IMG/VR virus record: IMGVR_UViG_2541047805_000004
Reading direction: 5' to 3' (one strand)
Source of the DNA: a virus
Taxonomy: Duplodnaviria > Heunggongvirae > Uroviricota > Caudoviricetes
DNA: 16,123 nt
Shown here: positions 1 to 15,577 of the stretch, in pieces
How positions within the stretch are numbered: position 1 is the first letter of the stretch
How the letters are laid out: each line of letters starts with the position of its first letter
Made by a program: the position numbers and the translations under genes
The notes under the pieces: generated by a model
The model's database searches: none
Seen by the model: only the letters and a program-made list of their open reading frames with translations
What the model was told of the DNA's origin: nothing

Positions 1-662
1 TCACTCTGCCAGATGGCGCAATGCCATCTGGTATCACTTAAAGGTATTAAAAACAACTTTTTGTCTTTTTACCTTCCCGTTTCGCTCAAGTTAGTATAAA
101 AAAGTTGAATGTGAAACGGTAAAAACAATTAATATCAACGGCTTATAATTGATTCAGTCTAAAAAATAGACTGCAAAACGCGACAAAACACAACATATCC
201 AGTCACTATGAATCAACTACTTAGATGGTATTAGTGACCTGTAACAGAGCATTAGCGCAAGGTGATTTTTGTCTTCTTGCGCTAATTTTTTGTCGTAAAA
301 TCGGTAACGTCTGGAAATCATTCAATACTCGCACTATCGGAAGTTCACCAGCCAGCCGCAGCACGTTATTGCATACAACGTGCTGCGGCATAAAACCAAT
401 GATTATTCCTTCCCGCACATGACATACCGCGACTTTATTTATCCCCAGCAGGAAATTTTTCATACAACTTCGACCCACCAACATCACAGGTAATCGTTCC
501 GCCTGTGTATTCTCGCGCCAACATCTACCACAATTTGTTTTCTTAGGATTGTAGTCACTCTTCTGGTTGTTTCACATAATAACTTGTATACTTCAGATAG
601 TATTCATAACCTCAAACTATTTAATGTATAAATTAGATCTGAAAGTTTAGGAAAGATTTTCT

Positions 663-1382
663 ATGTTGATCGTTTCTGTACTACGCTGCGGCAAGGATTT
701 TACGCCGAAACATGCACAATGGCTTCATAAACAATTTGGTTCAATGCCCTCAATCTGCTTGACTGATGCTGGAAGTATTGATGGTGTGAATACTGCACCT
801 TTGTTATTTGATTGGCCTGGTTGGTGGTCAAAAATGGAGTTATTTAACCCAAACCATCCAGTAATCGGGAATCATGACATTTTATATTTTGACATAGATG
901 TTGTCATTACTGGAAAATTGGATATTTTTACAAAAGCTAAAAATTTTACCATGCTCAGGGAGTTTAATCATCATGACCGTGTTAACTCCTCAATTATGAT
1001 GATTCCCGTTTCTGCAAAGACAAAAATATGGGAGGAATTTACTGCCAATCCTGAACAAATAATGCAAGAATGCAAAACTGAAGATAAATGGGGTGATCAA
1101 GGTTTTATCGGTAGTGTTACTAAGCCAGACTTATGGCAGGACATTATTCCAGATGCAATTAAAAGTTATAAATGCGATATAGCAACAAAATCAATGATTG
1201 GATACAATCCAGACCTGGCATCAAAATCAGCAACTGGGAAAGTACCTGACAGTGTTTCAGTTGTGTGTTTTCACGGTAGTCCACGCCCCTGGCGCACTGG
1301 TTTTAACTGGGTTCCATCTTTTTCTTTAAAAGATACGCTTTATGGCAAAGTAAAAAATCTCAAATTAAAGGTTAAAGGTTAA
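663..1382 (+). CDS. Putative glycosyltransferase, GT8 family-like (LgtC/RfaJ-like retaining glycosyltransferase); low-GC moron
   Basis: 239-aa ORF with ATG at 663 preceded by AGGAAAG about 8 nt upstream. The translation has, in the canonical GT8 order, an N-terminal hydrophobic strand (MLIVSVL), a DxD motif in hydrophobic context (ILYFDIDVVI, cf. LgtC VLYLDIDVLV), NSSIMMIPV...KIW (cf. NAGVLLINLKKW), GDQGFIGSV (cf. QDQDILN) and CFHGSPRPW (cf. HYCGPAKPW). The region is AT-rich relative to the lambda-like flanks. Function is inferred from motifs only. Confidence 0.5.
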   Translation: MLIVSVLRCGKDFTPKHAQWLHKQFGSMPSICLTDAGSIDGVNTAPLLFDWPGWWSKMELFNPNHPVIGNHDILYFDIDVVITGKLDIFTKAKNFTMLREFNHHDRVNSSIMMIPVSAKTKIWEEFTANPEQIMQECKTEDKWGDQGFIGSVTKPDLWQDIIPDAIKSYKCDIATKSMIGYNPDLASKSATGKVPDSVSVVCFHGSPRPWRTGFNWVPSFSLKDTLYGKVKNLKLKVKG

Positions 1383-1457: not shown

Positions 1458-2048
1458 TCAGCAATAATAAAAGGAGTAAATCCTTCCGTTATCCTCATCA
1501 AAGGCAGCAAGTTCATCATAACCCGCCACATCCACCGACTTTTCACGGTAGTTTTTTGCCGCTTTACCGCCCAGGCACCAGAAGCCACGCCCATTGGTGA
1601 AACGCTTCATGGTGAGCGTGTTATCCCGGTGCTTTTTGCCATACCACGGGGCCAGCGCAAGCAGCGAAGGAATATCGCGGATGGTCGGCTCAACGTGGGT
1701 TTTCATAAAGTTCTCGGCATCACCATCCGTCGGCAACCAGATAAGGGTGTTGCGCTGCTTATGCTCTATGAAGTAGGCATAAACACCCAGCAGCATTTTG
1801 GAATAACCAACACGGGCAGACTTCACCACATTCACCTCGCGGACGTAGTCACTGCCCATCGCATTCATGATGGCCCGCTGAAAGGGCAGTGTTTCCCAGC
1901 GCCCTTCCTGGTATGCGGATTCTTTCGGGAGATAATAATTGGCATCCGCCCATTCAACGGCGGTCTGTGGCTCCGGCCTGAACAGTGAGCGAAGCCCGGC
2001 GCGGACAAAATGCCGCAGCCTGTTAACCTGACTGTTCGATATATTCAC
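1458..2048 (-). pseudogene. A: Terminase large subunit (lambda gpA-like), N-terminal fragment only; truncated
   Basis: The translation MNISNSQVNRLRHFVRAGLRSLF...KSVDVAGYDELAAFD matches my recollection of the lambda gpA N-terminus for about 183 residues, then diverges (EDNGRIYSFYYC-stop). Start is GTG at 2048, overlapping the Nu1 3' end as in lambda. The homology breakpoint is near 1495. Full-length gpA is about 640 aa, so the ATPase/nuclease regions are missing. Confidence 0.85.
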
Positions 2049-2568
2049 TCAGCAACCCCGGTATCAGTTCATCCAGCGCGGCTGCTTTGTTCATGGCTTT
2101 GATGATATCCCGTTTCAGGAAATCAACATGTCGGTTTTCCAGTTCCGGAAAACGCCGCTGCACCGACAGGGGGATCCCGTCGAGAATACTGGCAATTTCA
2201 CCTGCGATCCGCGACAGCACGAAAGTACAGAATGCGGTTTCCACCACTTCAGCGGAGTCTCTGGCATTTTTCAGCTCCTGTGCGTCGGCCTGTGCACGCG
2301 TAAGTCGATGGCGTTCGTACTCAATAGTCCCTGGCTGGAGATCTGCCTCGCTGGCCTGCCGCAGTTCTTCAACCTCCCGGCGCAGCTTTTCGTTCTCAAT
2401 TTCAGCATCCCTTTCGGCATACCATTTTATAACGGCGGCAGAGTCATAAAGCACCTCATTACCCTTGCCACCGCCTCGCAGAACGGGCATTCCCTGTTCC
2501 TGCCAGTTCTGAATGGTACGGATACTCGCACCGAAAATGTCAGCCAGCTGCTTTTTGTTGACTTCCAT
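2023..2568 (-). CDS. nohD: Terminase small subunit (lambda Nu1-like)
   Basis: 181-aa ORF MEVNKKQLADIFGASIRTIQNWQEQGMPVLRGGGKGNEVLYDSAAVIKWYAERDAEIENEKLRREVEELRQ..., which I recognise as the lambda Nu1 sequence (winged-HTH N-terminus). ATG at 2568; it sits immediately downstream of cos, as in lambda. Confidence 0.9.
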   Translation of the reverse strand: MEVNKKQLADIFGASIRTIQNWQEQGMPVLRGGGKGNEVLYDSAAVIKWYAERDAEIENEKLRREVEELRQASEADLQPGTIEYERHRLTRAQADAQELKNARDSAEVVETAFCTFVLSRIAGEIASILDGIPLSVQRRFPELENRHVDFLKRDIIKAMNKAAALDELIPGLLSEYIEQSG

Positions 2569-2574
2569 TGTTCA

Positions 2575-2800
2575 TTCCACGGACAAAAACAGAGAAAGGA
2601 AACGACAAAGGCCCAAAAGTTCGTTTTCAGCACCTGTCGTTTCCTTTCTTTTCAGGGGGTATTTTAAATAAAAACATTAAGTTACGACGAAGAAGAACGG
2701 AAACGCCTTAAACCGGAAAATTTTCATAAATAGCGAAAACCCGCGAGGTCGCCGCCCCGTAACCTGTCGGATCGCCGGAAAGGACCCACAAAATGATAAT
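2575..2800 (-). other. cos: Lambda-type cohesive end site (cosQ-cosN-cosB)
   Basis: The reverse complement of 2746-2757 is GGGCGGCGACCT, the lambda 12-nt cohesive end, followed on the minus strand by CGCGGGTTTTCGCTATTTATGAAAATTTTCCGGTTTAAGGCG (lambda left-end/cosB sequence) leading into Nu1. On the other side, ...CGATCCGACAGGTTACG matches the lambda right end. Confidence 0.75.
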
Positions 2801-2956
2801 GATTATCATCTGCATGTCACAACGTGCATCTACGCCATCAAACCACGTCAAATAATCAATTATGACGCAGGTATCGTATTAATTGATCTGCATCAACTTA
2901 ACGTAAAAACAACTTCAGACAATACAAATCAGCGACACTGAATACGGGACAACCTC

Positions 2957-3190
2957 ATGTCAACGAAGAACAGAACCCGCAGAACAACAACCCGCAACAT
3001 CCGCTTTCCTAACCAAATGATTGAACAAATTAACATCGCTCTTGATCAAAAAGGGTCCGGGAATTTCTCAGCCTGGGTCATTGAAGCCTGCCGCCGGAGA
3101 CTGTGCTCAGAAAAAAGAGTTTCTCCTGAAGCAAACAAAGAAAAGAGTGACATTACTGAATTGCTCAGAAAACAGATCAGACCAGATTGA
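2957..3190 (+). CDS. ylcI: Small basic protein, YlcI/YnfO-like (DUF3950); possible ribbon-helix-helix DNA-binding protein
   Basis: 77-aa ORF with ATG at 2957. It has an N-terminal Arg/Thr-rich basic stretch followed by RNIRFPNQMIEQINIALDQKGSGNFSAWVIEA, a strand-helix-helix-like pattern. Its position next to cos matches the ylcI locus of DLP12 and the small right-end ORF of lambda. Confidence 0.55.
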   Translation: MSTKNRTRRTTTRNIRFPNQMIEQINIALDQKGSGNFSAWVIEACRRRLCSEKRVSPEANKEKSDITELLRKQIRPD

Positions 3191-3248
3191 AGCAATTTAG
3201 ATAATCGTGCAGACTACGCCCCCCTCATATCACATGGAAGGTTTATCT

Positions 3249-3659
3249 ATGGATCAGGTAGTCATTTTTAAACAAATATTTGATAAAGTTCGAAACGATT
3301 TAAACTATCAATGGTTTTATTCTGAGCTAAAACGTCACAATGTCTCACATTACATTTACTATTTAGCCACAGAGAATGTTCATATTGTATTAAAAAATGA
3401 TAATACAGTGTTATTAAAGGGCCTAAAAAACATTGTGTCTGTCAAATTTTCAAAGGATAGGCATCTTATAGAAACGACCTCTAATAAGCTGAAATCCAGA
3501 GAGATCACATTTCAGGAATACAGAAGAAACCTTGCTAAAGCAGGAGTTTTTCGGTGGGTTACAAATATCCACGAACAAAAAAGATATTACTATACCTTTG
3601 ATAATTCATTACTCTTTACTGAAAACATACAGAGCACATCACAAATGTTTCCACACTAA
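3249..3659 (+). CDS. ybcV: DUF1398-family protein YbcV-like
   Basis: The ORF frame is open from 3207 (GTG). In-frame ATGs are at 3234 and 3249. The 3249 start has GGAAGG about 7 nt upstream and gives a 136-aa product, the length I recall for K-12 YbcV. It is 16 bp downstream of, and co-oriented with, the ylcI-like gene. Confidence 0.6.
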
Positions 3660-3961
3660 ACCATAACGTCCGGTTTCTTCTACCCCTGCACCGGACTGGC
3701 TGACATGAAGAGCAACCCCGCGTTCAGTTGACGCGTTAATAACCCGGTGTGCATCGTTTTTGATTATTCCCGCACACTCACGCAGAAGGAATTCCCCGTC
3801 GGGCTACGGTCATGGTTAATGCGGGAATACGGCGACGATACAGCGCATGATGTGTCAGGCTTGAATACCTTTATCCGTTAAAAGGGATATCAGTTAAGTT
3901 ATCCCGTGCAGGGTATAAGCCATTATCAAGCCCCCCGTAGATAGGCTTTGTAATGACATCT

Positions 3962-4486
3962 TCAATTAATCAGCAGTTCAGGCTGTGTCACCTGCAAGAT
4001 GTATTCATGCTCGACAGTCAGGACACGCTTCTCTTTCTTCCGTTCGTTCATTAACCGACTGCCGATCGTACCTTTCAGCTTTGAGCGTGTTTCTTTGATG
4101 GCGTAGCGGTGCTGCATTTCTTCGCCAATTGCCATGCGGCGGCTCAGTTGTTCTGCCATCCAGTTGAATGCTGCGATATAGCTCTCCTTGATTGCCGCAG
4201 CAGCTTTCCCGGTGAACCCCATCACAACCATGATCCAGCCATCTTTCGTCAGGCTGTACATCGGGCGAACCTTGCCCTGCTCATCGATATAATCAGCCGA
4301 CGCAAAATTGCGTTGGCTAAACTCACGCGAGCAATCAGCCTTAACCTGCTCGATTTTCCTGAGAACATCACCGTGTCGCTTGCCGAAGTACTTGGCAATT
4401 TTTCTGGATGTGGTAACGACCTCTCCGTTTTTGGCTTGCACCATTTCTCGGAAGTCGAAGGCTGGAATAACTGAATGATTATTCAT
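3962..4486 (-). CDS. Phage regulatory protein, Rha family (antirepressor-like)
   Basis: A 174-aa product from the ATG at 4486: MNNHSVIPAFDFREMVQAKNGEVVTTSRKIAKYFGKRHGDVLRKIEQ... This N-terminal signature is typical of the Rha/ORF6N domain family. The longer 255-aa ORF in the track has an N-terminal extension with no protein-like character. Confidence 0.6.
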   Translation of the reverse strand: MNNHSVIPAFDFREMVQAKNGEVVTTSRKIAKYFGKRHGDVLRKIEQVKADCSREFSQRNFASADYIDEQGKVRPMYSLTKDGWIMVVMGFTGKAAAAIKESYIAAFNWMAEQLSRRMAIGEEMQHRYAIKETRSKLKGTIGSRLMNERKKEKRVLTVEHEYILQVTQPELLIN

Positions 4487-4630
4487 AGCGTCTTTACCTT
4501 TTAGAAAGTGAGCCTGTCTCACAGAAAAGCCGCCCGAGAGAGGTCGCCACCTATAACGGCATTTCTCAGGCTCGCTTACTGAAAGGCTCTCGTTAATATG
4601 CGCGTGAGATGCGCTGTGAAATTCAGATAT

Positions 4631-4654
4631 AAAAAGCCCCGCGAATGCGAGGCT
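4631..4654 (-). terminator. Rho-independent terminator downstream of the lysis cassette (Rz/Rz1)
   Basis: The minus strand reads GCCTCGC ATTC GCGGGGC TTTTTAT: a 7-bp GC-rich stem (one G-U), a 4-nt loop and a T5 run. It lies about 175 nt after the Rz stop and about 145 nt before the Rha-like start. Confidence 0.6.
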
Positions 4655-4828
4655 AAATCCTGGTATTTGTAATGAACTGGCTCTTATCTCAACGCAGCCC
4701 CTTACTGCGCGCCAGATGCTCAATATCAAGCATCAGCAATGAGATGTTTAATCTGGATTTACTCCAGAAGTGATCACCACCCTGTCTACAGAGCCAGATG
4801 TGAAGGATGATGAGTAAAATTATCGCTA

Positions 4829-5296
4829 TCATCGAAGGCATTGCGTCCTAATGTATTCCTGAAGCGTTCTCAGTGCTGTTTGGTCGCGGATAATTCCGTC
4901 CCGGATATCGAGAACGTTTCGTCCAGCAACTGGAGAGAGTTCGACGGTGGCATCATTGCCCATGCCGGAGGCGCTGGAGGTTTCGGCAGAGGATGGCACA
5001 GGGCATTTTCCTTTGACGAGCACCCTGCCACCATTATCAAGCTTCCGCAGAAGAGCATCATTTTCAGCTTTCGCATCAGCTAACTCCTTCGTGTATTTTG
5101 CATCGAGCGCAGCAACATCACGCTGACGCATCTGCATGTCAGTAATTGCCGCGTTCGCCAGCTTCAGTTCTCTGACATTTTTGTCGCGCTGGGCTTTGTA
5201 GGTAATGGCGTTATCACGGTAATGATTAACAGCCCATGACAGGCAGACGATGATGCAGATAACCAGAGCGGAGATAATCGCGGTTACTCTGCTCAT
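4829..5296 (-). CDS. rzpD: Spanin inner-membrane subunit (Rz, i-spanin)
   Basis: [40 protein letters not shown]..., N-terminal TM followed by a coiled-coil; Rz-like. The ATG at 5296 overlaps the endolysin stop (ATGA). The track's longer ORF starts four codons upstream. Confidence 0.85.
4870..5076 (-). CDS. rzoD: Spanin outer-membrane lipoprotein subunit (Rz1, o-spanin), embedded in the +1 frame of Rz
   Basis: 68-aa ORF wholly inside Rz: [21 protein letters not shown]... It has a lipobox (VAGC) and a proline-rich [11 protein letters not shown] segment, typical of Rz1. Confidence 0.7.
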
Positions 5297-5790
5297 TGTT
5301 TCCCCCACAAACAGACTTCACGCTCAATCTCACGGCGAGTCATCAGTCCTTTCCATTGATTACCGCCAGCGTATGTCCAGCGCCGTAGCTGATCACATGC
5401 GCCTTTGATATCACCGTGGTTTATTTTGCGAAGAAGCGTCGATGTTCTGAAATTGCCAGCACCCACGTTGTAGACGAACGAGTAAAGAGCGCCGCGCGTT
5501 GTTTCCGGTATATCAACTTTTATGTACGGGTTAATTTGTCTGGCGACCGTGGCAAGGTCTTTATTCAGGAGGGCTTTGCATTCTGCTTTGGTATACGTTT
5601 TACCGAGCATGATGTCTTTTCCTGTATGCCCGTGACATACAGTCCATACACCAACAATATCTTTGTATGGTATGTAGCTGACACCTTCCAGACCATCGTT
5701 ACCACTTGGGCCAGTGATTAACACTGATGCTATAGCAATTGCTCCGCCACCAATAGCAGCAGCAACGGCTTTTCGTAATGATGGAGGCAT
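5293..5790 (-). CDS. rrrD: SAR endolysin (T4-lysozyme-like, GH24) of the phage 21 type
   Basis: 165-aa ORF whose N-terminal Gly/Ala-rich weakly hydrophobic segment ([18 protein letters not shown]) is a signal-anchor-release domain, followed by a lysozyme domain. I recognise it as DLP12 RrrD / phage 21 R. The ATG at 5790 overlaps the holin stop. Confidence 0.9.
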
Positions 5791-6005
5791 TATTCACCTC
5801 TCGCAGCCTTGCGCTTATCTTCTTTAATCTTGAAATAAAGGTTTGTCAGGTACGTCAGCAGGCCAAATACCAGGCTACCCAGCACACCTATTGCTGCCCA
5901 CTGTGAGGGCGTGACTTTATCGAGCAGCTGTAAAAACCAGTAACCGGCACTACCTGCTGAGGTGCCATAGGCGACACCCGTTGTTAACTTATCCATGGAT
6001 TTCAT
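5790..6005 (-). CDS. essD: Pinholin (S21-family holin) with dual-start motif
   Basis: [71 protein letters not shown]. It has two closely spaced starts (ATG at 6005 and 5996, Met-Lys-Ser-Met), characteristic of an antiholin/holin pair. The RBS GAGGTGG lies upstream of 6005. The track ORF extends 15 codons further upstream. Confidence 0.85.
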
Positions 6006-6594
6006 AACCCCACCTCGCAGACAAAGCGGGTGTAAATTGAGGGAATACAACGTATCGCAAAAAAGCAGAAACGTAACAGACTCGGAGTCAGTGAATAACT
6101 CAGGTATTGAGTTATCAGCTAATATCGAGACTCAAAAAATGGAAAAACCAGCTCGACGGCGGGTTTAAGCTGTGTGACGAAGTAACCACTCTTAACAGCA
6201 TAACCAATTTTTTACGTACGTAAACCACTGAATGATATTTATGAGAATGCTACCGAGTGTTCAAAACACCACCACAAATACATAAGAAAACCTCAACAAA
6301 TAACCAATAAATAATTTCCGGCGTTATTTTTAGTTAATTTAAATTAAACCATCGAATTATAGACCCCCCCATAAATAACAGCCATTAATATAAATTAGCT
6401 AATAGGTTTATTTTTGTTCAAATAAGAGCCATAAATAGGTTTCGATAGAAAAAGTTCAGATAAAAATAGAGATCTACTTCACAAATTAAATGAGAAACTA
6501 AAACTTACATCTTGAAATAATCACATTGATTAGATGAATATTTATCGCGCAGTGACATCATTTTTTAATAATAGTTCAAAAAAAAGGGCTCACG

Positions 6595-7677
6595 ATGAAA
6601 AAATTAACAGTGGCAATTTCTGCTGTAGCTGCATCAGTACTGATGGCGATGTCTGCTCAGGCAGCTGAAATTTATAATAAAGACAGTAACAAGCTGGATC
6701 TGTACGGGAAAGTTAATGCTAAGCACTACTTCTCCTCTAATGATGCAGATGATGGTGATACTACTTATGCCCGTCTTGGCTTCAAAGGTGAAACCCAAAT
6801 CAACGATCAACTGACTGGTTTCGGTCAGTGGGAATATGAATTCAAAGGCAACCGCGCTGAATCTCAAGGTTCCTCCAAAGATAAAACCCGTCTTGCCTTC
6901 GCTGGCCTGAAATTCGGTGACTACGGCTCCATCGATTACGGCCGTAACTACGGTGTAGCATACGACATCGGTGCGTGGACTGACGTCCTGCCAGAATTCG
7001 GTGGTGACACTTGGACTCAAACAGATGTGTTCATGACTGGTCGCACCACTGGTGTTGCAACTTATCGTAACAACGACTTCTTTGGTCTGGTTGATGGTCT
7101 GAACTTTGCTGCTCAGTATCAGGGTAAAAATGACCGCACTGACGTAACTGAAGCTAATGGTGATGGTTTCGGTTTCTCCACTACTTATGAGTATGAAGGA
7201 TTCGGTGTAGGTGCAACCTATGCTAAATCTGATCGCACTAATAATCAGGTTATCTACGGTAACAACGGTCTGAATGCTTCTGGTCAAAATGCTGAAGTAT
7301 GGGCAGCTGGTCTGAAATATGATGCGAACAACATCTATCTGGCCACCACCTATTCTGAAACCCAGAACATGACTGTTTTTGGTAATAACCATATTGCCAA
7401 CAAAGCACAAAACTTCGAAGCTGTTGCACAATATCAGTTCGACTTCGGCCTGCGTCCATCCGTTGCTTACCTGCATTCTAAAGGAAAAGACTTGGGTGTT
7501 TGGGGTGATCAGGACCTGGTTGAATATGTTGATGTAGGTGCAACCTATTACTTCAACAAAAATATGTCCACTTTTGTTGACTACAAAATCAACCTGATTG
7601 ATAAGAGCGATTTCACGAAAGCATCTGGCGTTGCTACCGATGATATCGTTGCTGTAGGTATGGTTTACCAGTTCTAA
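6595..7677 (+). CDS. nmpC: OmpC/OmpF-family general porin (NmpC/OmpD-like), apparently intact
   Basis: 360-aa ORF with signal peptide [23 protein letters not shown]|AEIYNKD, porin hallmarks throughout, and a C-terminal aromatic residue (…VYQF). AAGGG RBS before the ATG at 6595. It lies between Q and the holin on the opposite strand, the position of nmpC in DLP12. Confidence 0.9.
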
Positions 7678-7687
7678 TTTGATTACT

Positions 7688-7727
7688 AAAAGATATGTTG
7701 TGGGAGGCTTTGCCTCCCCAACATATA
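7688..7727 (-). terminator. Predicted tR'-like intrinsic terminator for the short late leader transcript
   Basis: The minus strand reads ATATGTTGGGGAGGC AAA GCCTCCCACAACATAT followed by CTTTTAG: a long GC-rich stem with a T-run. Its position about 100-170 nt downstream of Q is analogous to lambda tR'. Confidence 0.5.
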
Positions 7728-7789
7728 AGTGGCTCCCTCAAGCCACTTCCTTTAGAAGCACAACCTTGCTTCTAACTATACAAACCTTC

Positions 7790-7850
7790 TGTTATATATT
7801 ACCCTTTATTTTTGGGGGCGTTTCAACGCCCCATTTTTAATAACTTTTAG
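7790..7850 (-). promoter_or_regulatory. Predicted late promoter (pR'-like) and Q-utilisation region
   Basis: Immediately downstream of the Q stop, the minus strand has TTGAAA followed 18-19 nt later by TAATAT. Assigned by position and by analogy with lambdoid late regions; the exact start and pause site cannot be fixed from sequence alone. Confidence 0.3.
7814..7838 (+). terminator. Rho-independent terminator of the porin gene
   Basis: GGGGCGTT TCAA CGCCCC followed by ATTTTT on the + strand, about 140 nt after the porin stop. It overlaps the predicted late-promoter region on the opposite strand. Confidence 0.6.
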
Positions 7851-7865
7851 TAAATAATTGGCGTA

Positions 7866-8249
7866 TTAATTAGAGTTATTAACAACGATATCCATCTCTA
7901 ACCGGATATCTAATGCCATTAACATCCCTTCAATTATGCCCTCAGCCTTCTGTAACCTTTTCCCGATATAACCATCAGAGCAGCAATGCTTACCTGCCAG
8001 TGACATGAATGTCATACCGACTACATAATAATCTACTAATAAATCGTGCAAATCGCTGTTGTTCTTTTTCAGACGGGCCATGCACCCGCAAATGATCATC
8101 GCGTCATCGTCACAACATTGCGGGCGAGATTTTACTTTTGAAGGAATTAATCCCTTAAAACCGGCGGCAATGGACGACCAGGTCACATCTTCATGATTAT
8201 TAGCCGCCCACGCTCCCCAACGCTCAAGAACCATCTGAATATCACGCAT
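7866..8249 (-). CDS. quuD: Late-gene antiterminator Q (phage 82/21-type)
   Basis: 127-aa product from the ATG at 8249: [24 protein letters not shown]...[16 protein letters not shown]... (Cys-rich zinc-binding region). I recognise it as DLP12 QuuD. The track ORF starts five codons upstream. Confidence 0.85.
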
Positions 8250-8352
8250 CAACTTACTCCACAAAAATCAGACCAGAACGCCAATTACAAGCAAAAATCA
8301 ATAAAACAGTATTAGTTGATTGTTATCTCTGACTTCATACTCCTGCTCCTGT

Positions 8353-8472
8353 CAGGGTTTTGGCGTAATTCTTCAGTATTCGGTAATCGGTCAAAACAGA
8401 ACCGGGGAAACGATATAAGCGCAGACGCCCCCAGCGGTGGCGAAGAAGTTCTGCTATATTAAACTCAAACAT
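8353..8472 (-). CDS. ylcG: Small ORF, YlcG-like
   Basis: Hand translation from the ATG at 8472 (overlapping the rusA stop): [39 protein letters not shown]-stop, 39 aa. It is below the ORF-track size cutoff. Position between rusA and Q matches ylcG in DLP12. Confidence 0.4.
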
Positions 8473-8834
8473 CATTCATTCCCCATTTCGGTGATGGTCA
8501 GTTCCAGCCTCCCACCTTTGGTAACAGGCATCTTCACAACGCGGTAATCAACGACCTGAGCATCATCCAGCCAGAAACCTGCTTTAGTGAGTGCGTCAAA
8601 AGCGGCTTTTTGCAGATTATCCAGGTCACGGCGACGGCGATCCGGCATGTGGCACTCAATGCGGATTTTCACAGGCATAGCCAGGCCGATATCCAGCATT
8701 GCGCTTTTAATGATTCGGGCGACGTTATCGCGGTATGCCTGCCCCTCTGCACTGACGTGCGTGCGCCCGCGATTATGGCGGTAATAGCGATTATTGCTCG
8801 GAGGCCAGGGTAATGTGATACTGTAGGTATTCAC
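8472..8834 (-). CDS. rusA: Holliday junction resolvase RusA
   Basis: 120-aa [45 protein letters not shown]..., recognised as RusA. GTG start at 8834 overlapping the ybcO stop. Confidence 0.9.
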
Positions 8835-9121
8835 GCCTTAATAACCCCCTCTTTCAGCCAGATAACCTGTGTTCTCGCCATACCTTCCAGCGCGCATTCT
8901 TTTGCATATGCAGCATCGACAAAATGTGTGCGGCGGTCGATTTCGTCGTGGCAGGCAGAACATGCAATGGTGGCAATCAGGTCTGGCGGTTTGATACCGG
9001 TACCGCACAATCCAGCCAGCCGGATATGTGCCAGTACAGACGTTTCAGAATTGCCATTACATACGCCAGGGATTCTTACCTGGCATTCCCGACCACGCGC
9101 TGCTTTTCTCAAATCAGCCAT
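8831..9121 (-). CDS. ybcO: YbcO-like protein (DUF1364, putative metal-binding nuclease)
   Basis: 96-aa product from the ATG at 9121 with AAGGAGG RBS: [62 protein letters not shown]... (Cys/His cluster). The track ORF uses an upstream TTG. Confidence 0.8.
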
Positions 9122-9284
9122 GATTCCTCCTTGCTGCCAGTCGCAACCATTTTTTATCAACCAGGCTAGCGGTATATCCGAGCAGTGTTGGTATTTCGGA
9201 TGGCTTCAGCTCAGGCTTACGCTTACGACGATTTGATACTCTGTAGATGTGTCCGTTCATGACACGAATAAGCGGTGTAGCCAT
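9114..9284 (-). CDS. ninE: NinE-like small protein
   Basis: Hand translation from the ATG at 9284 (TAATG overlap with the ybcN stop): [56 protein letters not shown]-stop, 56 aa. It overlaps the ybcO start by 8 nt. Below the ORF-track cutoff. Confidence 0.6.
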   Translation of the reverse strand: MATPLIRVMNGHIYRVSNRRKRKPELKPSEIPTLLGYTASLVDKKWLRLAARRNHG

Positions 9285-9739
9285 TACGCCTCCTGCTTGT
9301 CGCGGAGCAGCTGGAACTCGCAGCTCTGCGGAATAGTCAGGTGGCAGCCAATATTCACCGCCCAGGCTTCAACCTTACACAGGAAGACATACATCTCTCC
9401 GGTATCAAGATCGGAGGTATGGCGTAACGACTGGATAGTGGTGATATCACCGGTTACGACATCAACCAGGTCTTTGGTTTCATAACCGAGATATGTGTGT
9501 TTGAGAGCATCTTTTACCCAAGCTGGAGTGGCGAACGTTTTACCCCTGCTGATGAGGTATTCACTGATTTCGCTGTACCACATGTGGCTGAGTGCATTCT
9601 GGGAAAGACTGCGTTTCTCACGCCACGGTTTAAGCACCATGCGAAAGCATTTGCCCTCCTCCAGATAAGGCTGGATCTGCCGACCGATAGCGGTGAAGTT
9701 GCCGCGATGTAATTTGATGCCGTCTTGTGAGAGGTTCAC
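9284..9739 (-). CDS. ybcN: NinB-family recombination protein (YbcN-like)
   Basis: 151-aa ORF with GTG start at 9739 and GGAGGTG RBS 5 nt upstream. It contains ...[22 protein letters not shown]..., resembling the NinB core. Confidence 0.8.
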
Positions 9740-9837
9740 GCTTCACCTCCGCAGAGGTCAAACGCTAGATGCAAAGAATTGCAGGTGCATTTCTGCATCT
9801 GTGAAGGGAGAAGAGAGTTTGGATTGTATGTGCGCAT
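9736..9837 (-). CDS. ylcH: Small ORF (33 aa), possibly YlcH-like
   Basis: Hand translation from the ATG at 9837: [33 protein letters not shown]-stop. Length and position (between ybcM and ybcN) match ylcH of DLP12, but the sequence itself has no recognisable features and coding potential is uncertain. Confidence 0.25.
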
Positions 9838-9860
9838 AAACGTCCCCGTTTAGCGCAGAA

Positions 9861-9889
9861 GTCACCGGAGTTGTTCAGGCTCCGGTGAC
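9861..9889 (-). terminator. GC-rich stem-loop downstream of ybcM (possible terminator with weak U-tract)
   Basis: gtcaccggag ttgttcagg ctccggtgac: a perfect 10-bp stem with a 9-nt loop, about 65 nt after the ybcM stop. The T-run is poor on both strands. Confidence 0.3.
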
Positions 9890-9953
9890 ATAATTATGCC
9901 GTGTTGATTTCCCAAAATCAAAATCGATAGAATTGCTCCTTCTTAAAACACTT

Positions 9954-10751
9954 TTACTCTCTGGAAGCTTTTCTTATCTCTCTTGGTGTTATATTAAAAC
10001 GATTATGAAATCTTTCAGTAAAACGAGAAGGACACTTATAACCATTTTCTCTGGCAATCTCGCTTATAGGTTTTACCGTCGTTTGTATAGCAGACAACGC
10101 ATTATTTAACCTCACATCGTCCAGTATACTTTGGAAACTTACCCCCTCGCTTGCTAGACGGCGATGTAATGTAGAAACAGAAATGTAGAGATATCGAGCA
10201 ACCTTGTTTGCTGTCCATTTTGTGCCGGGTTCGGATAGCAGCAGGTTATAACAACGACTTATCAATGATTGTTTACTATATGATAAAAGTAAATGATTAA
10301 CATGATTCACTCCTAACGAAAGTAGAACGCCCATTGCTAAGTGCTCCTGAATTTTAGTTGAGAAGCCTCGGGAAACAGATGTTTTTAGTTGCTCCCAACA
10401 ATATATTAACTCAGGATTCTGAGGTAAAAAGAAACTTGTTTTGTTACGTATTTGATCAGTTACCGTATAAAGTTTTTGGAAACTCTCAATTAAATCAATG
10501 GGTAAGTAAAGCATTTCTGCAAGATAAAGCCCTGCTTCAGGATAATTCTCAATATAAAATTCATAACCACAAGGAAATAATATTATTTGATTATTATCAA
10601 CAGTTAAAGTATGCGTCTCCCAATTGATAACTTTCTTTCCCTGACGGATACGACACAAAGCTGGCATAAGAGGCTTAACCCTATGAATCTCATGATGTTT
10701 ATGCATCCGTATTTCTTCGATCTTTAAGTTAGTCTTACCTCTTGCCAGCAT
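9954..10751 (-). CDS. ybcM: AraC/XylS-family transcriptional regulator
   Basis: 265-aa ORF. The C-terminal region (...[41 protein letters not shown]...[29 protein letters not shown]) is a typical AraC-type double-HTH domain. Low GC. ATG at 10751. Confidence 0.85.
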
Positions 10752-10760
10752 ACTCTCACC

Positions 10761-11312
10761 CTACTTTATCTCATAAACTGGTGTTATCTCAGCGGTTGCG
10801 ATTTTATTAGCATTAAGCATATAACCAACTAACGCTCCGCTGGAGTTAGAATCTACAGGAATCTTTTCAGTTTTTAGAGCCCATACTTTAAACTGGTAAT
10901 GATGTGGTTTATCTCCTTTAGGAGGACATGCGCCACCAAACCCAGCATAGCCAAAATCATTTCGGCCTTGAACAGCACCAGTCGGCAGTTTTGTTCCATC
11001 ACGTCTCCCTGCATCAACGGGCAAATATGTTATTGTTGCTGGAATATTAACAACAGTCCAATGCCACCAACCACTGCCTGTAGGTGCATCTGGATCATAT
11101 ACAGTTACGGCAAAGCTTTTGGTACCTTCAGGAACACCAGACCAGGTTAATGAGGGCGATGTATTACCACCTTCACACCCAAATCCAGAAAAGACATGAG
11201 ACGTTGTAAGTTGCTCTCCTGTTTTTATTTCATTACTAGTGACCTGAAATGCTGCAGCCTGCGCAGAAAATGTTATGAATGCCAATACAGTTGAAACGAT
11301 AAGTGTTTTCAT
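10761..11312 (-). CDS. ybcL: Periplasmic PEBP/RKIP-family protein (YbcL-like)
   Basis: 183-aa ORF with signal peptide MKTLIVSTVLAFITFSAQA|AAFQ. It has the PEBP-like motif region ...VYDPDAPTGSGWWHW...HHYQFKVWAL. AAGAGG RBS. It is 10 bp upstream of ybcM in the same orientation, so the two probably form an operon. Confidence 0.85.
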   Translation of the reverse strand: MKTLIVSTVLAFITFSAQAAAFQVTSNEIKTGEQLTTSHVFSGFGCEGGNTSPSLTWSGVPEGTKSFAVTVYDPDAPTGSGWWHWTVVNIPATITYLPVDAGRRDGTKLPTGAVQGRNDFGYAGFGGACPPKGDKPHHYQFKVWALKTEKIPVDSNSSGALVGYMLNANKIATAEITPVYEIK

Positions 11313-11528
11313 AAAAACCTCTTTGTTATGACCTATCGTTATTTTATTTGATATTCCTTTATCTCATTATGCATAAAGGCGCAATGTTTATGCAAAAGCA
11401 ATCACAATTGTACCCCCAACCCAATTATTTGCCACAATATACACAAAGCACATTGATACTATCTAAAAACTCTGCTTTATTATTAGTAATACCTACGAAA
11501 GTCGGTGTTATTTTTTAACCTACCATTC

Positions 11529-11578
11529 AAAATACGTGACATACACCATTTTGCTCATAATAATTTGTCACGTATTTT
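11529..11578. repeat. 50-bp element: perfect 13-bp inverted repeats (AAAATACGTGACA / TGTCACGTATTTT) flanking a 24-bp AT-rich spacer
   Basis: Read directly from the sequence: 11529-11541 and 11566-11578 are exact reverse complements. It lies in the intergenic region between the ybcK stop (11777) and the ybcL start (11312). Confidence 0.8.
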
Positions 11579-11776
11579 CAGTATTTGAATCTGCGACCAA
11601 GAGTTCTCACCTAACAAATGATTAAGATTGTATAGCTCATTTACTACCCCAATACAGCCGTACAAAACTCGCTTGTGGGAGCAAACAAAGTAATTACCCA
11701 TTAAGTTTCGTCAAAGATAATTAATTCTGTCTTGCACTTTATCACCATAGCATAACTTAAAATCCGAGATCATTAT

Positions 11777-13303
11777 TTAGAAATAAATCTCACCATCAAC
11801 CATATATTTGAGAGCACTTATCGCCTGCTGGGCGGATATTACTTTCATTAAAGGATAGTGTTTAAAAACAATGCCATTCATAAAATAGATATCACAGGTT
11901 TTATTATCCGTATTAATTATGATTTTTTCGAATGTTTTATAGGCAAGTGTACGGCATAACTCTCGTCCATTTTTACTGGTTAAGTCAATAGCATAAAAAT
12001 CACTGAATGAATTTACACCTTTACTCTTCAAAGTTTTCAATGATACCGAAGCCCTTCGTAATTCCTTATCTAATAGTCTTATTTTCTCTGCTATAGCGGT
12101 AACTTCAGGCGCGACAGACAATGCAACGATTAAATTATTAATTTTCATCTGAAGCTCAATAATTTTTAACTCTAAAGTTTCATTAGCATCTTTCTTGTTT
12201 TCAACTGGTTGAATTTTGCTACAATTAAAAAGCAATTCATTAATGATATTATAATCAACCAAATCTCTTTTTATTGATGGCCTGTCACATCGATGTAATC
12301 TTCTCATCGGACAAACATAATAGCCATGCAAACTTCCAGATACCGCATGAACAATCATGGTATTACCACAAGCCTCACACTTCATAACTGTTCGAAGTAG
12401 ATTTATTAGCATAGGATTCTTGCTACTATTGCTAATACCAAAAGGTGCCAACCGAATTTCCTGTACAGCGTAAAACAAATCATCTGATATAACTCTGGGA
12501 TAATAGCCAGCGATTTCACTTATCCCTTTCCCTCTTGCACGATATGAAGGTACGCATATACCTATCAGAGCTTTATTCGCTAATAATTTTTCAATTACAG
12601 AAGGTCCCCATGCACTTTCTTTTCCTGAGAAATTCTTTACAGCATGATCATTTAAATACTTGGCTATTGCATTCAATGAGCGCCTTTCCATCCTGAGTTT
12701 AAAAATTAGCTCAATAGTTTTCACCCTGTCGGGGTCTGGAACAAAAGCCGTTCTTTTGTCATCTAAGGAGAGCCATCTCGGACAAGACGCCGTCATAATC
12801 GTACCTGATTCCATTGCATCCTGCCGTTTTTTCTTCCATGATAATTTAACCCGACTTGACTTTATCTCGCTTTCTTCATTTGCCCTTTGTGCTATAAGTA
12901 TGGCTTTTATTAATGAATATGGCTCATTCAAAGAGTCAATATTATAGACTGTATTGTCGCAAAGAGTTATAACATCAATACCGTGATTCAAAATCAATTT
13001 CAGACGTTCAATCGCTTCACCGACTTTTTCTCTTGAAAGTCTGTCCAGACTTTCAACTAACAATGTAGTTCCTGGCAATATATAACCATGCTCTATAGCA
13101 TCTAAAAATTCCGAAAAAGCTCCTGATTGTGCATGCTTTCCTTTGAATGCACTTAATCCTAAATCTTCATATGTTATGGTATCAAGATAATAATCACTAT
13201 TTACCTTTAACCATTCAGCAATAAGTCTTCTCTGTCGGTTTAATGAGTCACCAGACATCTGACCTGGTGATGAAAATCGCATATATGCTATGGCTTTTTT
13301 CAT
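11777..13303 (-). CDS. ybcK: Large serine recombinase (resolvase/invertase N-terminal catalytic domain plus recombinase and zinc-ribbon domains)
   Basis: 508-aa ORF. N-terminus AIAYMRFSSPGQ (catalytic Ser context) and LVESLDRLSRE (resolvase motif); a C-terminal Cys cluster (CEACGNTM...YYVCPMRRLHRCD) followed by a coiled-coil-like region. Very low GC. ATG at 13303 with AGGTG RBS. Confidence 0.85.
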   Translation of the reverse strand: MKKAIAYMRFSSPGQMSGDSLNRQRRLIAEWLKVNSDYYLDTITYEDLGLSAFKGKHAQSGAFSEFLDAIEHGYILPGTTLLVESLDRLSREKVGEAIERLKLILNHGIDVITLCDNTVYNIDSLNEPYSLIKAILIAQRANEESEIKSSRVKLSWKKKRQDAMESGTIMTASCPRWLSLDDKRTAFVPDPDRVKTIELIFKLRMERRSLNAIAKYLNDHAVKNFSGKESAWGPSVIEKLLANKALIGICVPSYRARGKGISEIAGYYPRVISDDLFYAVQEIRLAPFGISNSSKNPMLINLLRTVMKCEACGNTMIVHAVSGSLHGYYVCPMRRLHRCDRPSIKRDLVDYNIINELLFNCSKIQPVENKKDANETLELKIIELQMKINNLIVALSVAPEVTAIAEKIRLLDKELRRASVSLKTLKSKGVNSFSDFYAIDLTSKNGRELCRTLAYKTFEKIIINTDNKTCDIYFMNGIVFKHYPLMKVISAQQAISALKYMVDGEIYF

Positions 13304-13487
13304 GGTGACACCTGCTAACGTATGCTTTTATAAACCTTAGTGGTGGGATATAATTTTTGTTTAATTTTTATTTAAAAAGACAATTAAGGTCACATTATCT
13401 TGAATATACAACAATAATCGTATTGCAATTTTCTTACGCCATAATCTTGAAAGCACAAAAGAATACATAAAAAATAAAGACATTAAC

Positions 13488-13527
13488 AAAAAGCATAAAA
13501 CGAGGCTCATATAAATATAAGAGCCTC
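13488..13527 (-). terminator. Predicted rho-independent terminator of emrE
   Basis: About 30 nt after the emrE stop, the minus strand reads GAGGCTC...(12-nt AT loop)...GAGCCTC followed by GTTTTATGCTTTTTG. The stem is 7 bp with a long loop, so this is a moderate call. Confidence 0.45.
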
Positions 13528-13557
13528 CATATTTTAGTCGTTTAGAAACAAATTATT

Positions 13558-13890
13558 TTAATGTGGTGTGCTTCGTGACAATAAATTAATAACCAACACA
13601 CCGGCACAAATCAACATCATGCCTATAATGGCTGGCAGGTCCAGCCGTTGGCCGAAAAATCCCCATGACAGTAAACTAATCAGGACAATACCGACTCCTG
13701 ACCAGATAGCATAAGCAATCCCTGTAGGAATATAAGCCAGCGTCTGAGCTAATAACCAGAATGATGCACAATAACAAATAATTGTACCAACAGATGGCCA
13801 TAACCGTGTAAAACCTTCTGAAAACTTCATTAAGGTTGTACCAATGACCTCTGCAAGTATTGCACCACCAAGATAAATATAAGGGTTCAT
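13558..13890 (-). CDS. emrE: SMR-family multidrug efflux transporter EmrE
   Basis: 110-aa product from the ATG at 13890 (AGGAAAG RBS): MNPYIYLGGAILAEVIGTTLMKFSEGFTRLWPSVGTIICYCASFWLLAQTLAYIPTGIAYAIWSGVGIVLISLLSWGFFGQRLDLPAIIGMMLICAGVLVINLLSRSTPH. Four TM helices and the conserved membrane-embedded Glu (AEVIG). The track ORF includes an upstream in-frame extension. Confidence 0.9.
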   Translation of the reverse strand: MNPYIYLGGAILAEVIGTTLMKFSEGFTRLWPSVGTIICYCASFWLLAQTLAYIPTGIAYAIWSGVGIVLISLLSWGFFGQRLDLPAIIGMMLICAGVLVINLLSRSTPH

Positions 13891-13905
13891 AGCATATTCT
13901 TTCCT

Positions 13906-13940
13906 GTTCAAACTGGAGAGAATTGTACTACAGTTTGAAC
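13906..13940 (-). promoter_or_regulatory. Perfect 10-bp stem / 15-nt loop hairpin immediately upstream of the emrE RBS
   Basis: gttcaaactg (13906-13915) and cagtttgaac (13931-13940) are exact reverse complements. On the minus strand the hairpin ends about 1 nt before the emrE Shine-Dalgarno and lies 18-50 nt after the ren stop. Confidence 0.5.
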
Positions 13941-13957
13941 TCAACTCACCTGTTTCA

Positions 13958-14260
13958 TCATTGTGTTCCCATTGATGTTCTTTTATATACCCTCAATACC
14001 CGTTTCATCGCGGCACTCTGGCGACACTCCTTAAAAATCAGATTCGTGCTCACCTTTCCTTCCCGTTCTTCTCTGGTAGCGAACCGGTAATACACCGTTC
14101 GCCAGACCTTACCATCAACGACCAGGATTCCTGCCCGCGCCATTTTAGCCGCAGCCTGATTTATGCTGGTTACGGTTGCGCCTGTTACCGCGGCAACGTC
14201 CTGTGCACAGAAGCTCTTATGCGTCCCCAGGTAATGAATAATTGCCTCTTTGCCCGTCAT
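13958..14260 (-). CDS. ren: Ren protein (lambda Ren-like)
   Basis: 100-aa ORF MTGKEAIIHYLGTHKSFCAQDVAAVTGATVTSINQAAAKMARAGILVVDGKVWRTVYYRFATREEREGK..., recognised as lambda Ren. The ATG at 14260 overlaps the P stop, as in lambda. Confidence 0.85.
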   Translation of the reverse strand: MTGKEAIIHYLGTHKSFCAQDVAAVTGATVTSINQAAAKMARAGILVVDGKVWRTVYYRFATREEREGKVSTNLIFKECRQSAAMKRVLRVYKRTSMGTQ

Positions 14261-14958
14261 ACACTTGCTCCTTTCAGTCCGAACTTAGCTTTAATTTCTG
14301 CGATCTTCGCCAGAGCCTGTGCACGATTTAGAGGTCTACCGCCCATAACAGGAAGTTGTTTTACTGGTTCAGGTATCGTCTCACCACGGTTAATTCGCGC
14401 TGTCATACAGGTCAGTTCATCGGCAGCCTTGCGCCGTAATTCCGCGTCAGTCAGCGCATTGGCCCGCATGTTCTGGTACAAGTTGGTAACCAACCAGTAA
14501 TGCGCGTTCGATTTCCACGGATAAGACTCTGCATCCGGATACAGGCCACGCTTCCGGCAATACTCGTAAACCATATCAACCAGCTCGCTGACGTTTGGCA
14601 GCCCGGCGTTAACAGATGCTTCTTCCCGGCACCAGGCGACAAACTGCCCGGGTGATGGCAGGAATGGTCGATTCTGCCGACGGGCTACGCGCATTCCAGC
14701 GTTAACCTGTTCCATTGTGGTGATCCCGTTTTCCCGGAAAGCCAGAACCCACTGGCGGCGGATTTCGTTCAGTTCATTCTGGTCACGGTTAGCCAGGCTC
14801 GCCGGGAAAGTTGCCAGTAACTGGCTTAACACACCGTTGATGATCTGCGCTACCTGCTGTACCTGTGGCTTTTCGTCGTACTGTTCCGGCATGTTGTTGG
14901 CGATCCGGCGCATCTGCTCACAGTCAAAGTTAACCATCTGTGCGGCGATGTTTTTCAT
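14257..14958 (-). CDS. P: Replication protein P (DnaB helicase loader), apparently full length
   Basis: 233-aa ORF MKNIAAQMVNFDCEQMRRIANNMPEQYDEKPQVQQVAQIINGV...KAKFGLKGASV, recognised as lambda P at lambda P length. The ATG at 14958 overlaps the end of the O reading frame. Confidence 0.9.
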   Translation of the reverse strand: MKNIAAQMVNFDCEQMRRIANNMPEQYDEKPQVQQVAQIINGVLSQLLATFPASLANRDQNELNEIRRQWVLAFRENGITTMEQVNAGMRVARRQNRPFLPSPGQFVAWCREEASVNAGLPNVSELVDMVYEYCRKRGLYPDAESYPWKSNAHYWLVTNLYQNMRANALTDAELRRKAADELTCMTARINRGETIPEPVKQLPVMGGRPLNRAQALAKIAEIKAKFGLKGASV

Positions 14959-15425
14959 AGCTCCACCCCGTAAATCCAGTCAGTGTTCGTCAGGTCGAGT
15001 TTTGGTTTGCTGGCAGTCACACCAGCCTGTTGCTTGTTACGGTTGATTTCGAGTTGGGTCCACTTGTCGCGGAGTTTGGCCGGACTTAGCACGTTACCGG
15101 ACCAGAAGTTGTCCTGGCATGCCCAGCGGAACAGCACGCACATGTCGCGGTGGTTACGTCCGTCACGTTCACGCATCAGGCGGATATCGTTAGCCCACCC
15201 TGCAAAATTCGGTTTTCTGGCTGATGGCGCGATGGTCTTCACCATGTCAAACATCCACTCTGCGGCGGTCAGGTCTTCTGCTGTCCCCCACCTGCTGCCG
15301 CTCTGAATTGCAGCATCTGGTTTCTCCACAGGAAGATCGTTTTCTGGTTGGTCAGAGGATTCGCCAGAATTCTCGGACGAAAAAGGTTTTATATTGTCTT
15401 TTGTTAGTTTGTCTTTTGTGTTTAC
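14955..15425 (-). pseudogene. O: Replication initiator O, 3' fragment only (ori AT-rich region and C-terminal P-interacting domain); iterons and N-terminal domain absent
   Basis: The frame ending ...KPKLDLTNTDWIYGVEL-stop is open upstream to about 15518 with no ATG. Minus-strand sequence from about 15420 downward (ACAAAAGACAAACTAACAAAAGACAATATAAAACC...GAGAATTCTGGCGAATCCTCTGACCA...) matches my recollection of the lambda ori AT-rich region and the downstream O coding sequence. Sequence above about 15425 is unrelated. Confidence 0.7.
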
Positions 15426-15565
15426 CTGATTCGGGTAAACGCCTTTACCCCAGCTTCGGCTTCGCGGAGAATACTGATGATCTGTTCGTCGGAAAAACGC
15501 TTCTTCATGGGGATGTCCTCATGTGGCTTATGAAGACATTACTAACATCGGGGTGTACTAATCAA
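15422..15565 (-). mobile_element. Remnant of an IS3-family insertion sequence (left end plus the first ~21 codons of the transposase OrfA) at the int/O deletion junction
   Basis: The minus-strand ATG at 15508 encodes MKKRFSDEQIISILREAEAGV..., a typical N-terminus of IS3-family OrfA (HTH_Tnp_1) proteins. The frame then hits a stop after 28 codons, where the sequence becomes the lambda ori region. About 55 bp upstream of the ATG, a TGATTAG... sequence is consistent with an IS terminus. Boundaries are approximate. Confidence 0.35.
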
Positions 15566-15577
15566 CGGGGAGCAGGT

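Follow-up and report, generated by a model that had tools for sequence, protein, structure and literature searches.

An intact lambdoid lysis cassette in an Escherichia coli prophage reduced by large deletions

Pinholins of the S21 family form small heptameric pinholes by which the membrane is depolarised and soluble endolysin is not released. The first transmembrane domain (TMD1) of these S21-type proteins is able to leave the membrane, and the second (TMD2) carries the G40/S44/G48 face. A SAR domain is an N-terminal, Gly/Ala-rich segment without a cleavage site. The lysis operon is normally turned on by the Q antiterminator, and the exchange of Q-S-R-Rz among lambdoid phages is known from the classical qsr' substitutions. 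In the curated record of phage 21 (OL657228) both the S21-71 and the S21-68 products are annotated, and the roles of the dual start, the SAR endolysin and the spanins are given. A second point of reference is PhiR70_1 (PV340577), a complete lambdoid phage of 48.8 kb with E. coli C as the host in its record.

Phenotypes that speak for host use of such a cassette have been reported for the DLP12 prophage of K-12 only (PMC7918800). Deletion of the K-12 operon raised the release of outer-membrane vesicles (OMVs) about 4-fold, and its regulatory region was active in a reporter fusion and responded to pH, osmolarity and temperature (PMC7918800). The immunity region is missing from K-12 DLP12, and the element is still reported to be transcribed (PMC7918800). 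The earlier studies that its authors refer to concern cell-wall maintenance, biofilm, and control by RpoE, Hha and Q. A genomic SELEX peak of the RpoS holoenzyme was found between insH and essD in K-12 (PMC5493296).

Here we describe a lysis cassette in a window of 16,123 nucleotides, by which we mean the whole stretch of DNA that was analysed. An earlier note on this DNA had taken the retention of the complete lysis module to suggest host use, and had added that the cassette is a known feature and not a new one. On the latter point we agree, as the roles of the DLP12 cassette are already published (PMC7918800) and the kind of element is known. On the former we arrive at a different reading, to which we give a probability of roughly 0.85: the locus is a standard lambdoid late lysis operon left in a prophage from which large deletions have recently removed the structural and immunity regions. 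The intactness of the cassette reflects recent prophage decay and not demonstrated selection for a benefit to the host.

Gene content and integrity of the cassette

Four open reading frames were found in the cassette (4829-6005, minus strand), with zero frameshifts or premature stops; their coordinates are listed in Table 1 together with those of the other features in the window. The alignment to S, R, Rz and Rz1 of phage 21 that had been proposed as a check likewise revealed no frameshift and no premature stop. All four proteins exceeded the gathering scores that served as the Pfam threshold: S matched PF04971 ('Bacteriophage P21 holin S') at 2e-35 with 121 bits against a cut-off of 26, R matched PF00959 (7e-45), Rz matched PF03245 (6e-31) and Rz1 matched PF06085 (8e-19). 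Each was also assigned to a lysis family in PHROGs, Rz to phrog_13 at 1e-74 and Rz1 to phrog_3198 at 7e-24, and a search of S, Rz and Rz1 against NCBIfam gave no family-level match. The stop codon of S overlaps the start codon of R in GAATAATGCC (TAATG), and that of R overlaps the start of Rz in CAATGAGC (ATGA). The four-gene pattern is far from chance. With uninterrupted reading frames, scores above the gathering cut-offs for every gene and both junctions in place, the description of four intact lysis genes joined by overlapping stop/start codons is borne out.

Table 1. Coordinates of the features annotated in the window.
Feature	Position	Strand	Length	Remarks
Lambda att core	91-105			1 mismatch
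Terminase A remnant	1458-2048	-	196 aa	first 196 aa; PF05876 profile positions 3-143 of 247
Nu1/nohD	2023-2568	-		intact; PF07471 at 9e-101
orf50	4689-4841	-	50 aa	13-nt overlap with Rz stop; phrog_11822 at 2e-37
Rz	4829-5296	-	155 aa	i-spanin
Rz1	4870-5076	-	68 aa	o-spanin lipoprotein; wholly within Rz, +1 frame
R	5293-5790	-	165 aa	SAR endolysin (GH24 / T4-lysozyme-type muramidase)
S	5790-6005	-	71 aa	class II holin of S21/EssD type
Porin-S spacer	6006-6594			AT-rich, between divergent genes; homologous to K-12 nmpC-essD regulatory region
Predicted stem-loop	6009-6030	-		over the S Shine-Dalgarno sequence
Porin gene	6595-7677	+	360 aa	Lc/NmpC/OmpD type; intact; PF00267 at 3e-152
Three consecutive hairpins	7693-7775	-		just 3' of quuD; the last followed by CUUUUAG (U-rich)
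quuD	7866-8249	-	127 aa	Q-type late antiterminator; intact; PF06530 at 9e-54
Integrase fragment	15574-16123			lambda-type; 99% identical to PhiR70_1 int

The holin S is 100% identical in protein sequence to EssD of K-12 and 86% identical to S21. It begins with MKSMDK, encoded by ATGAAATCCATGGAT, and has the same dual-start motif Met1-Lys2-x-Met4 as phage 21, with ATG at codons 1 and 4 as expected of the dual-start holin that had been claimed. The start codon of the 71-aa form lies at 6005 and that of the 68-aa form at 5996; by homology the longer form would act as the antiholin and the shorter one as the pinholin. Residues M1, K2 and M4 as well as G40/S44/G48 are conserved in the alignment with EssD and S21. 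TMD1 (residues 8-26) is composed of G/A/S/T to 63%, is weakly hydrophobic and falls under the hydropathy threshold. TMD2 is strongly hydrophobic, the mean KD reaching up to 2.1 in the stretch 31-60 that holds it. At the nucleotide level S and S21 are 76% identical with saturated synonymous sites and a pN/pS of 0.10, and the values for the cassette range from 0.05 to 0.10.

The 60 nt located 5' of S are identical to the K-12 sequence. RNA folding predicted a stem-loop on the minus strand in which CCCGCUUUG pairs with CGAGGUGGG and which would sequester the Shine-Dalgarno sequence (GAGG) of S. The z-scores of the fold around the S start (-0.4 and -0.8) are not significant, and this sequestering stem is only suggestive. 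A stem over the Shine-Dalgarno sequence of S is also predicted in phage 21, at an analogous position and with a different sequence.

The endolysin R shares 98% protein identity with RrrD and 97% with R21, and matches the solved structures of both proteins (4ZPU of RrrD, E 4e-110; 3HDE and 3HDF of R21, 3e-109 and 5e-93). The catalytic residues E35, D44 and T50 are present in the spacing of the Glu-8aa-Asp-5aa-Thr triad. Residues 8-27 contain 65% G/A/S/T and are identical in R21 and RrrD; by its composition this N-terminal stretch is read as a SAR domain.

Spanin allele and downstream genes

The N-terminal residues 1-27 of Rz are hydrophobic and form a transmembrane segment, and the periplasmic Cys98 and Cys153 align with cysteines in the Rz proteins of phage 21, HK620 and ST104. 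The signal peptide of Rz1 ends in the lipobox V16-A17-G18-C19, with serine at +2; the protein also has Cys27 and is proline-rich. The embedded Rz1 with a lipobox is as the earlier note had described it. This gene is not annotated in RefSeq, which is a small and correctable gap.

The label 'phage-21-type' given to the cassette holds for S, for R and for the overall architecture, but it does not extend to the spanin module. Rz is 67% identical to its counterparts in phage 21 and in K-12 DLP12 and Rz1 46% identical to each, whereas over its full length Rz shares 92% with Rz of HK620 and 88% with gp15 of ST104, and Rz1 shares 90% with the annotated Rz1 (orf44) of ST104. Residues 1-82 of Rz are common to phage 21, K-12, HK620 and ST104; beyond residue 82 few positions match phage 21 or K-12. 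At the DNA level, homology to both phage 21 and K-12 ends at 5052, within the Rz1 signal peptide, and resumes at 3847. A translated search returned the divergent half as an allele of HK620 and P22-like Salmonella phages. Judged from these alignments, Rz in its C-terminal half and Rz1 throughout belong to the HK620/ST104 (P22-like) allele and not to that of phage 21, lambda or DLP12. The locus is a clean case of lambdoid mosaicism in which a holin and endolysin of the S21/EssD type are joined to HK620/P22-type spanins, with the breakpoint in the Rz1 signal peptide.

Compared with PhiR70_1, the cassette has one differing base out of 1177 (position 4988) and is 99.9% identical with orf50 included. 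The S, R and Rz proteins are 100% identical to those of PhiR70_1; the change is silent in Rz and places L30 in Rz1, the residue being Q30 in PhiR70_1, in the ST2747 prophage and in ST104. Position 30 varies between Rz1 alleles, and Q30L is a derived change that is found in E. coli strain SW070917 as well.

The breakpoint at 5052 means that exchanges occur inside the cassette, and this bears on the possibility that the cassette has no cellular role and acts as a reservoir from which incoming lambdoid phages obtain Q-S-R-Rz alleles by homologous recombination. Phage 434B is a viable phage that has taken in a DLP12-type Q-nmpC::IS5 segment; in its curated record the segment running from ylcG through Q and nmpC::IS5 into S is non-434 DNA with the structure of K-12 DLP12. 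A review (PMC6379469), with reference to De Paepe 2014, also describes lambdoid phages that recombine with remnants of prophages, the lysis gene of DLP12 among them. However, supplying alleles would be a consequence of the cassette and not a selected function, and no exchange was observed at this locus. We regard this account as possible, if doubtful, and retain the reading of a late operon left behind by recent prophage decay.

Downstream of the spanins, orf50 and rha are found in place of borD. In the interval 3848-5051, which has no homology to K-12, lie the genes for the other spanin allele, for orf50 and for a protein of the Rha family. No Pfam match was found for orf50, and its residues 1-22 are hydrophobic. 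PhiR70_1 and SW070917 carry it with 100% identity, HK620 and the ST2747 prophage with 92%; the HK620 homologue overlaps the end of Rz and is unannotated there. It accompanies the spanin allele of the HK620 type in HK620, in PhiR70_1 and in several prophages, and from its sequence context orf50 may be a member of the lysis operon. That orf50 adds a fifth, so far undescribed component or a modulator to the operon we hold to be very unlikely, and the same applies, separately, to a second independent domestication of an S21-type cassette at att-lambda.

Prophage deletions and expression of the operon

The window is E. coli DNA that is essentially identical to strain SW070917, the nearest complete genome, and aligns to it in three pieces with 3 differing positions in 13,960 bp. 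Two regions kept by SW070917 are gone from the window: 7.8 kb with early and immunity genes and 2.4 kb from the terminase end. As a genome with 3 differences in 13,960 bp retains 10 kb more, the prophage has been eroded through recent large deletions. The terminase-end deletion has its junction at 1488/1490 relative to SW070917. At one deletion junction the ori iterons of gene O and an element of the IS3 family share a 4-bp microhomology (TACC); the other junction coincides precisely with the end of an IS1. The locus illustrates prophage erosion by IS-associated and microhomology deletions. On account of the three-piece alignment, an artificial join was considered as an origin of the window, and it was rejected in view of the TACC microhomology, the junction at the IS1 end and the intact ybcK, which is frameshifted in SW070917; this difference in ybcK fits a sister lineage.

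No head or tail genes were found within the window. The statement that the prophage lacks structural genes thus stands as far as the window reaches, where only Nu1 and a 196-aa piece of terminase A are present. Beyond this piece the sequence runs directly into the flank next to the lambda att core. In SW070917 the prophage occupies the lambda attachment site, with ybhC on one side and ybhB-bioA on the other. The element combines the gene content of DLP12 with the attachment site of lambda, and not with argU. The remaining genes in the 14-kb block all have full length in comparison with K-12 or PhiR70_1.

Upstream of the cassette, the late antiterminator gene quuD lies in an alignment with K-12 (7639-14171) that is 99% identical. 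The hairpins that follow it have a predicted folding energy of -48.6 kcal/mol (z = -6.4), and we infer that they are a candidate late terminator (tR') through which QuuD-modified polymerase would read; on the opposite strand they may also terminate the porin gene. The region 7600-8300, which runs from quuD to the porin gene with the spacer included, is 100% identical to PhiR70_1. Between Q and S stands the porin gene in antisense orientation, an arrangement common to PhiR70_1 and many lambdoid phages, and any late transcript must cross it. Across the porin-S spacer the alignment with K-12 (5052-7619) is about 92.3% identical. A consensus scan of 4500-8300 for sigma-70 promoters and terminators found no promoter-like site in the Q-porin or porin-S spacer, and the promoter-like sites in this region number 4 against 7.3 in shuffles. 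Since neither spacer holds a consensus site, the late promoter was not placed. Searches of the window for Rfam families and for tRNA genes gave no hits.

By homology with phage 21 and DLP12, transcription from a late promoter 3' of quuD would stop early unless Q is made. In the presence of Q, the polymerase would read through the hairpins, continue antisense across the porin gene and enter S-R-Rz/Rz1. Translation from codons 1 and 4 of S would yield the 71-aa antiholin and the 68-aa pinholin. R would be exported by Sec and held tethered and inactive by its SAR domain. Triggering of the pinholin would then depolarise the inner membrane, upon which R would be released, refold and degrade the murein, and finally the Rz/Rz1 complex would disrupt the outer membrane. 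Going by its genes, this copy would be expected to be competent for lysis.

The window lacks the entire region from the integrase fragment to mid-O, and with it pR and the repressor region. With these deleted, Q would be left without its native driver, and the cassette is probably silent, or weakly expressed from the porin-S spacer or by read-through. A further account holds that the cassette is silent and already crippled, with reading frames that look intact but no ability to lyse, either because Q30L in Rz1 disables the spanins or because the loss of pR and immunity leaves Q and the operon untranscribed. The derived state of Q30L, its presence in SW070917, the missing region from the integrase fragment to mid-O and the lack of a sigma-70 consensus promoter 5' of S would fit this account. 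On the other hand, Rz1 alleles differ from one another at position 30, the proteins S, R and Rz are the same as those of a complete phage, and K-12 DLP12, which is without an immunity region, is nevertheless reported to be transcribed (PMC7918800). A crippled cassette is therefore quite unlikely in our view, and we keep to the reading of a standard late operon in a recently decayed prophage.

Host use and comparison with described systems

Of the 5426 complete E. coli genomes, 5178 contain cassettes homologous to this one, the median number of copies being 2; SW070917 itself has a second one. At such a small distance from a complete phage, a cassette of 1.2 kb is expected to be intact under neutrality. 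The suggestion that retention of the module points to host use finds no support at this locus, as the cassette is 1 base in 1177 away from PhiR70_1, its neighbours are equally intact, the deletions are recent and a second cassette is present in SW070917.

A domesticated module would be under selection and expressed at a low level, for example from the porin-S spacer, with roles in peptidoglycan turnover, control of vesiculation, or biofilm and curli. The OMV phenotype of the DLP12 deletion, the stress-responsive regulatory region and the RpoS holoenzyme peak between insH and essD, all described in K-12 (PMC7918800; PMC5493296), argue for such a role, as do the identity of S to EssD, the close match of R to RrrD and the identical sequence immediately upstream. 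However, selection and lack of time are indistinguishable at a locus that is 1 nt from a complete phage; the rest of the block is intact too, large deletions are ongoing and the sister genome has a further cassette. The pN/pS values of the cassette are equally expected here, since such low values are what selection in replicating phages yields. The spanin allele and the downstream genes are also unlike those of K-12. We therefore consider domestication unlikely, with the evidence from the locus speaking neither for nor against host use, and favour recent prophage decay as the reason for the intact cassette. As a caution, domestication should not be read from an intact lysis cassette where the defective prophage that carries it is almost the same in sequence as a living phage. 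The importance of the locus is small beyond its correct annotation.

Among the described systems, K-12 DLP12 shares with the window the gene order quuD, antisense porin, S, R and Rz/Rz1. The content emrE-ybcK-ybcL-ybcM-ybcN-ninE-ybcO-rusA-ylcG-quuD-porin-essD-rrrD is present in the window, with 99.25% identity over 7639-14171, and in RefSeq the identical sequence of SW070917 is annotated with DLP12 gene names. The porin gene nmpC of K-12 is broken by IS5 whereas the porin gene in the window is intact; borD, which comes right after rzpD in K-12, is absent from the window; K-12 DLP12 is located at argU with intD, in contrast to the lambda att of the window; and the integrase fragment of the window is of the lambda type.

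Phage 21 (OL657228) has the same dual-start pinholin/antiholin, SAR endolysin, embedded spanins and overlapping junctions as the window. Upstream of S, however, phage 21 carries Q21 and two tRNA genes, whereas the window has QuuD and the porin gene and no tRNA. HK620 and ST104 have an Rz/Rz1 allele like that of the window but combine it with other lysis genes, HK620 with a lambda-S-like holin and ST104 with gp13/gp19.

In strain ST2747 a prophage of this type is present nearly in full and is located at argU. PhiR70_1 is collinear with the window over 1490-15449 at 99.1% identity, and like the window it carries the emrE/ybcK/ybcL/ybcM cargo and a lambda-type integrase. The full head, tail, immunity and recombination regions of this complete phage are what is missing from the window.

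Deletion junctions and relationship to SW070917

Two deletion junctions were found in the window when it was compared with SW070917, a near-identical E. coli genome. At the first of these (1488-1490), the middle of terminase A is fused to the exact outer end of the IS1 site of SW070917, and the IS1 itself is missing from the window. The second junction (15446-15449) joins the ori iterons within replication gene O to the interior of ISSen4, an IS3-family element, through a TACC microhomology, with approximately 128 bp of ISSen4 remaining next to an integrase fragment. The ybcK gene is intact in the window whereas that of SW070917 is frameshifted (at window nucleotide 11923), a difference that makes the window strain sister to SW070917 rather than descended from it.

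On its bio side, the prophage ends at the lambda attachment core (Table). The 239-aa ORF is annotated as 'hypothetical' in SW070917, has no Pfam match and was found to have no counterpart in the complete lambdoid phage PhiR70_1 (PV340577). This ORF may represent cargo from the right end of the prophage.

Features annotated in the window
Feature	Position	Strand	Remarks
Lambda attachment core	91-105	-	ACTTTTTTATACTAA; one mismatch to GCTTTTTTATACTAA
239-aa ORF	663-1382	+	Between attachment core and truncated terminase
orf50	4689-4841	-	50 aa; N-terminal hydrophobic segment; overlaps Rz stop by 13 nt
Porin gene (Lc/NmpC/OmpD type)	6595-7677	+	360 aa; intact; antisense between Q and S
Three strong successive hairpins	7693-7775	-	-48.6 kcal/mol, z = -6.4
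ybcK (large serine recombinase)	11780-13303	-	508 aa; intact
emrE (multidrug efflux)	13558-13890	-	10562-10894 in L005, the locus with the PhiR70_1 copy

The spanin genes and orf50

The short orf50 at the end of Rz matches phrog_11822, a family of unknown function, and shows 92-100% identity across PhiR70_1, SW070917, the prophage of strain ST2747 and phage HK620, the copy in the latter being unannotated. In every one of these four carriers it lies directly after a spanin allele of the HK620/ST104 type; no orf50 was detected at the ST104 locus. Within the spanin genes, a single base at window position 4988 differs from PhiR70_1, being silent in Rz while replacing Q30 with L30 in Rz1. Leucine occupies this residue in the window and SW070917, and glutamine in PhiR70_1, the ST2747 prophage and ST104.

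DLP12-type cargo and the porin gene

The so-called 'K-12 DLP12 genes' emrE, ybcK, ybcL and ybcM are all present in the complete phage PhiR70_1, which makes them the cargo of a phage lineage that is still living. The porin gene and quuD converge, and the three hairpins in the interval from quuD to the porin gene's end are probably terminators for both strands. The porin homologue in K-12 is interrupted by IS5 whereas the copy in the window is intact, and the same layout, with an intact antisense porin gene between Q and S, is found in many complete lambdoid phages.
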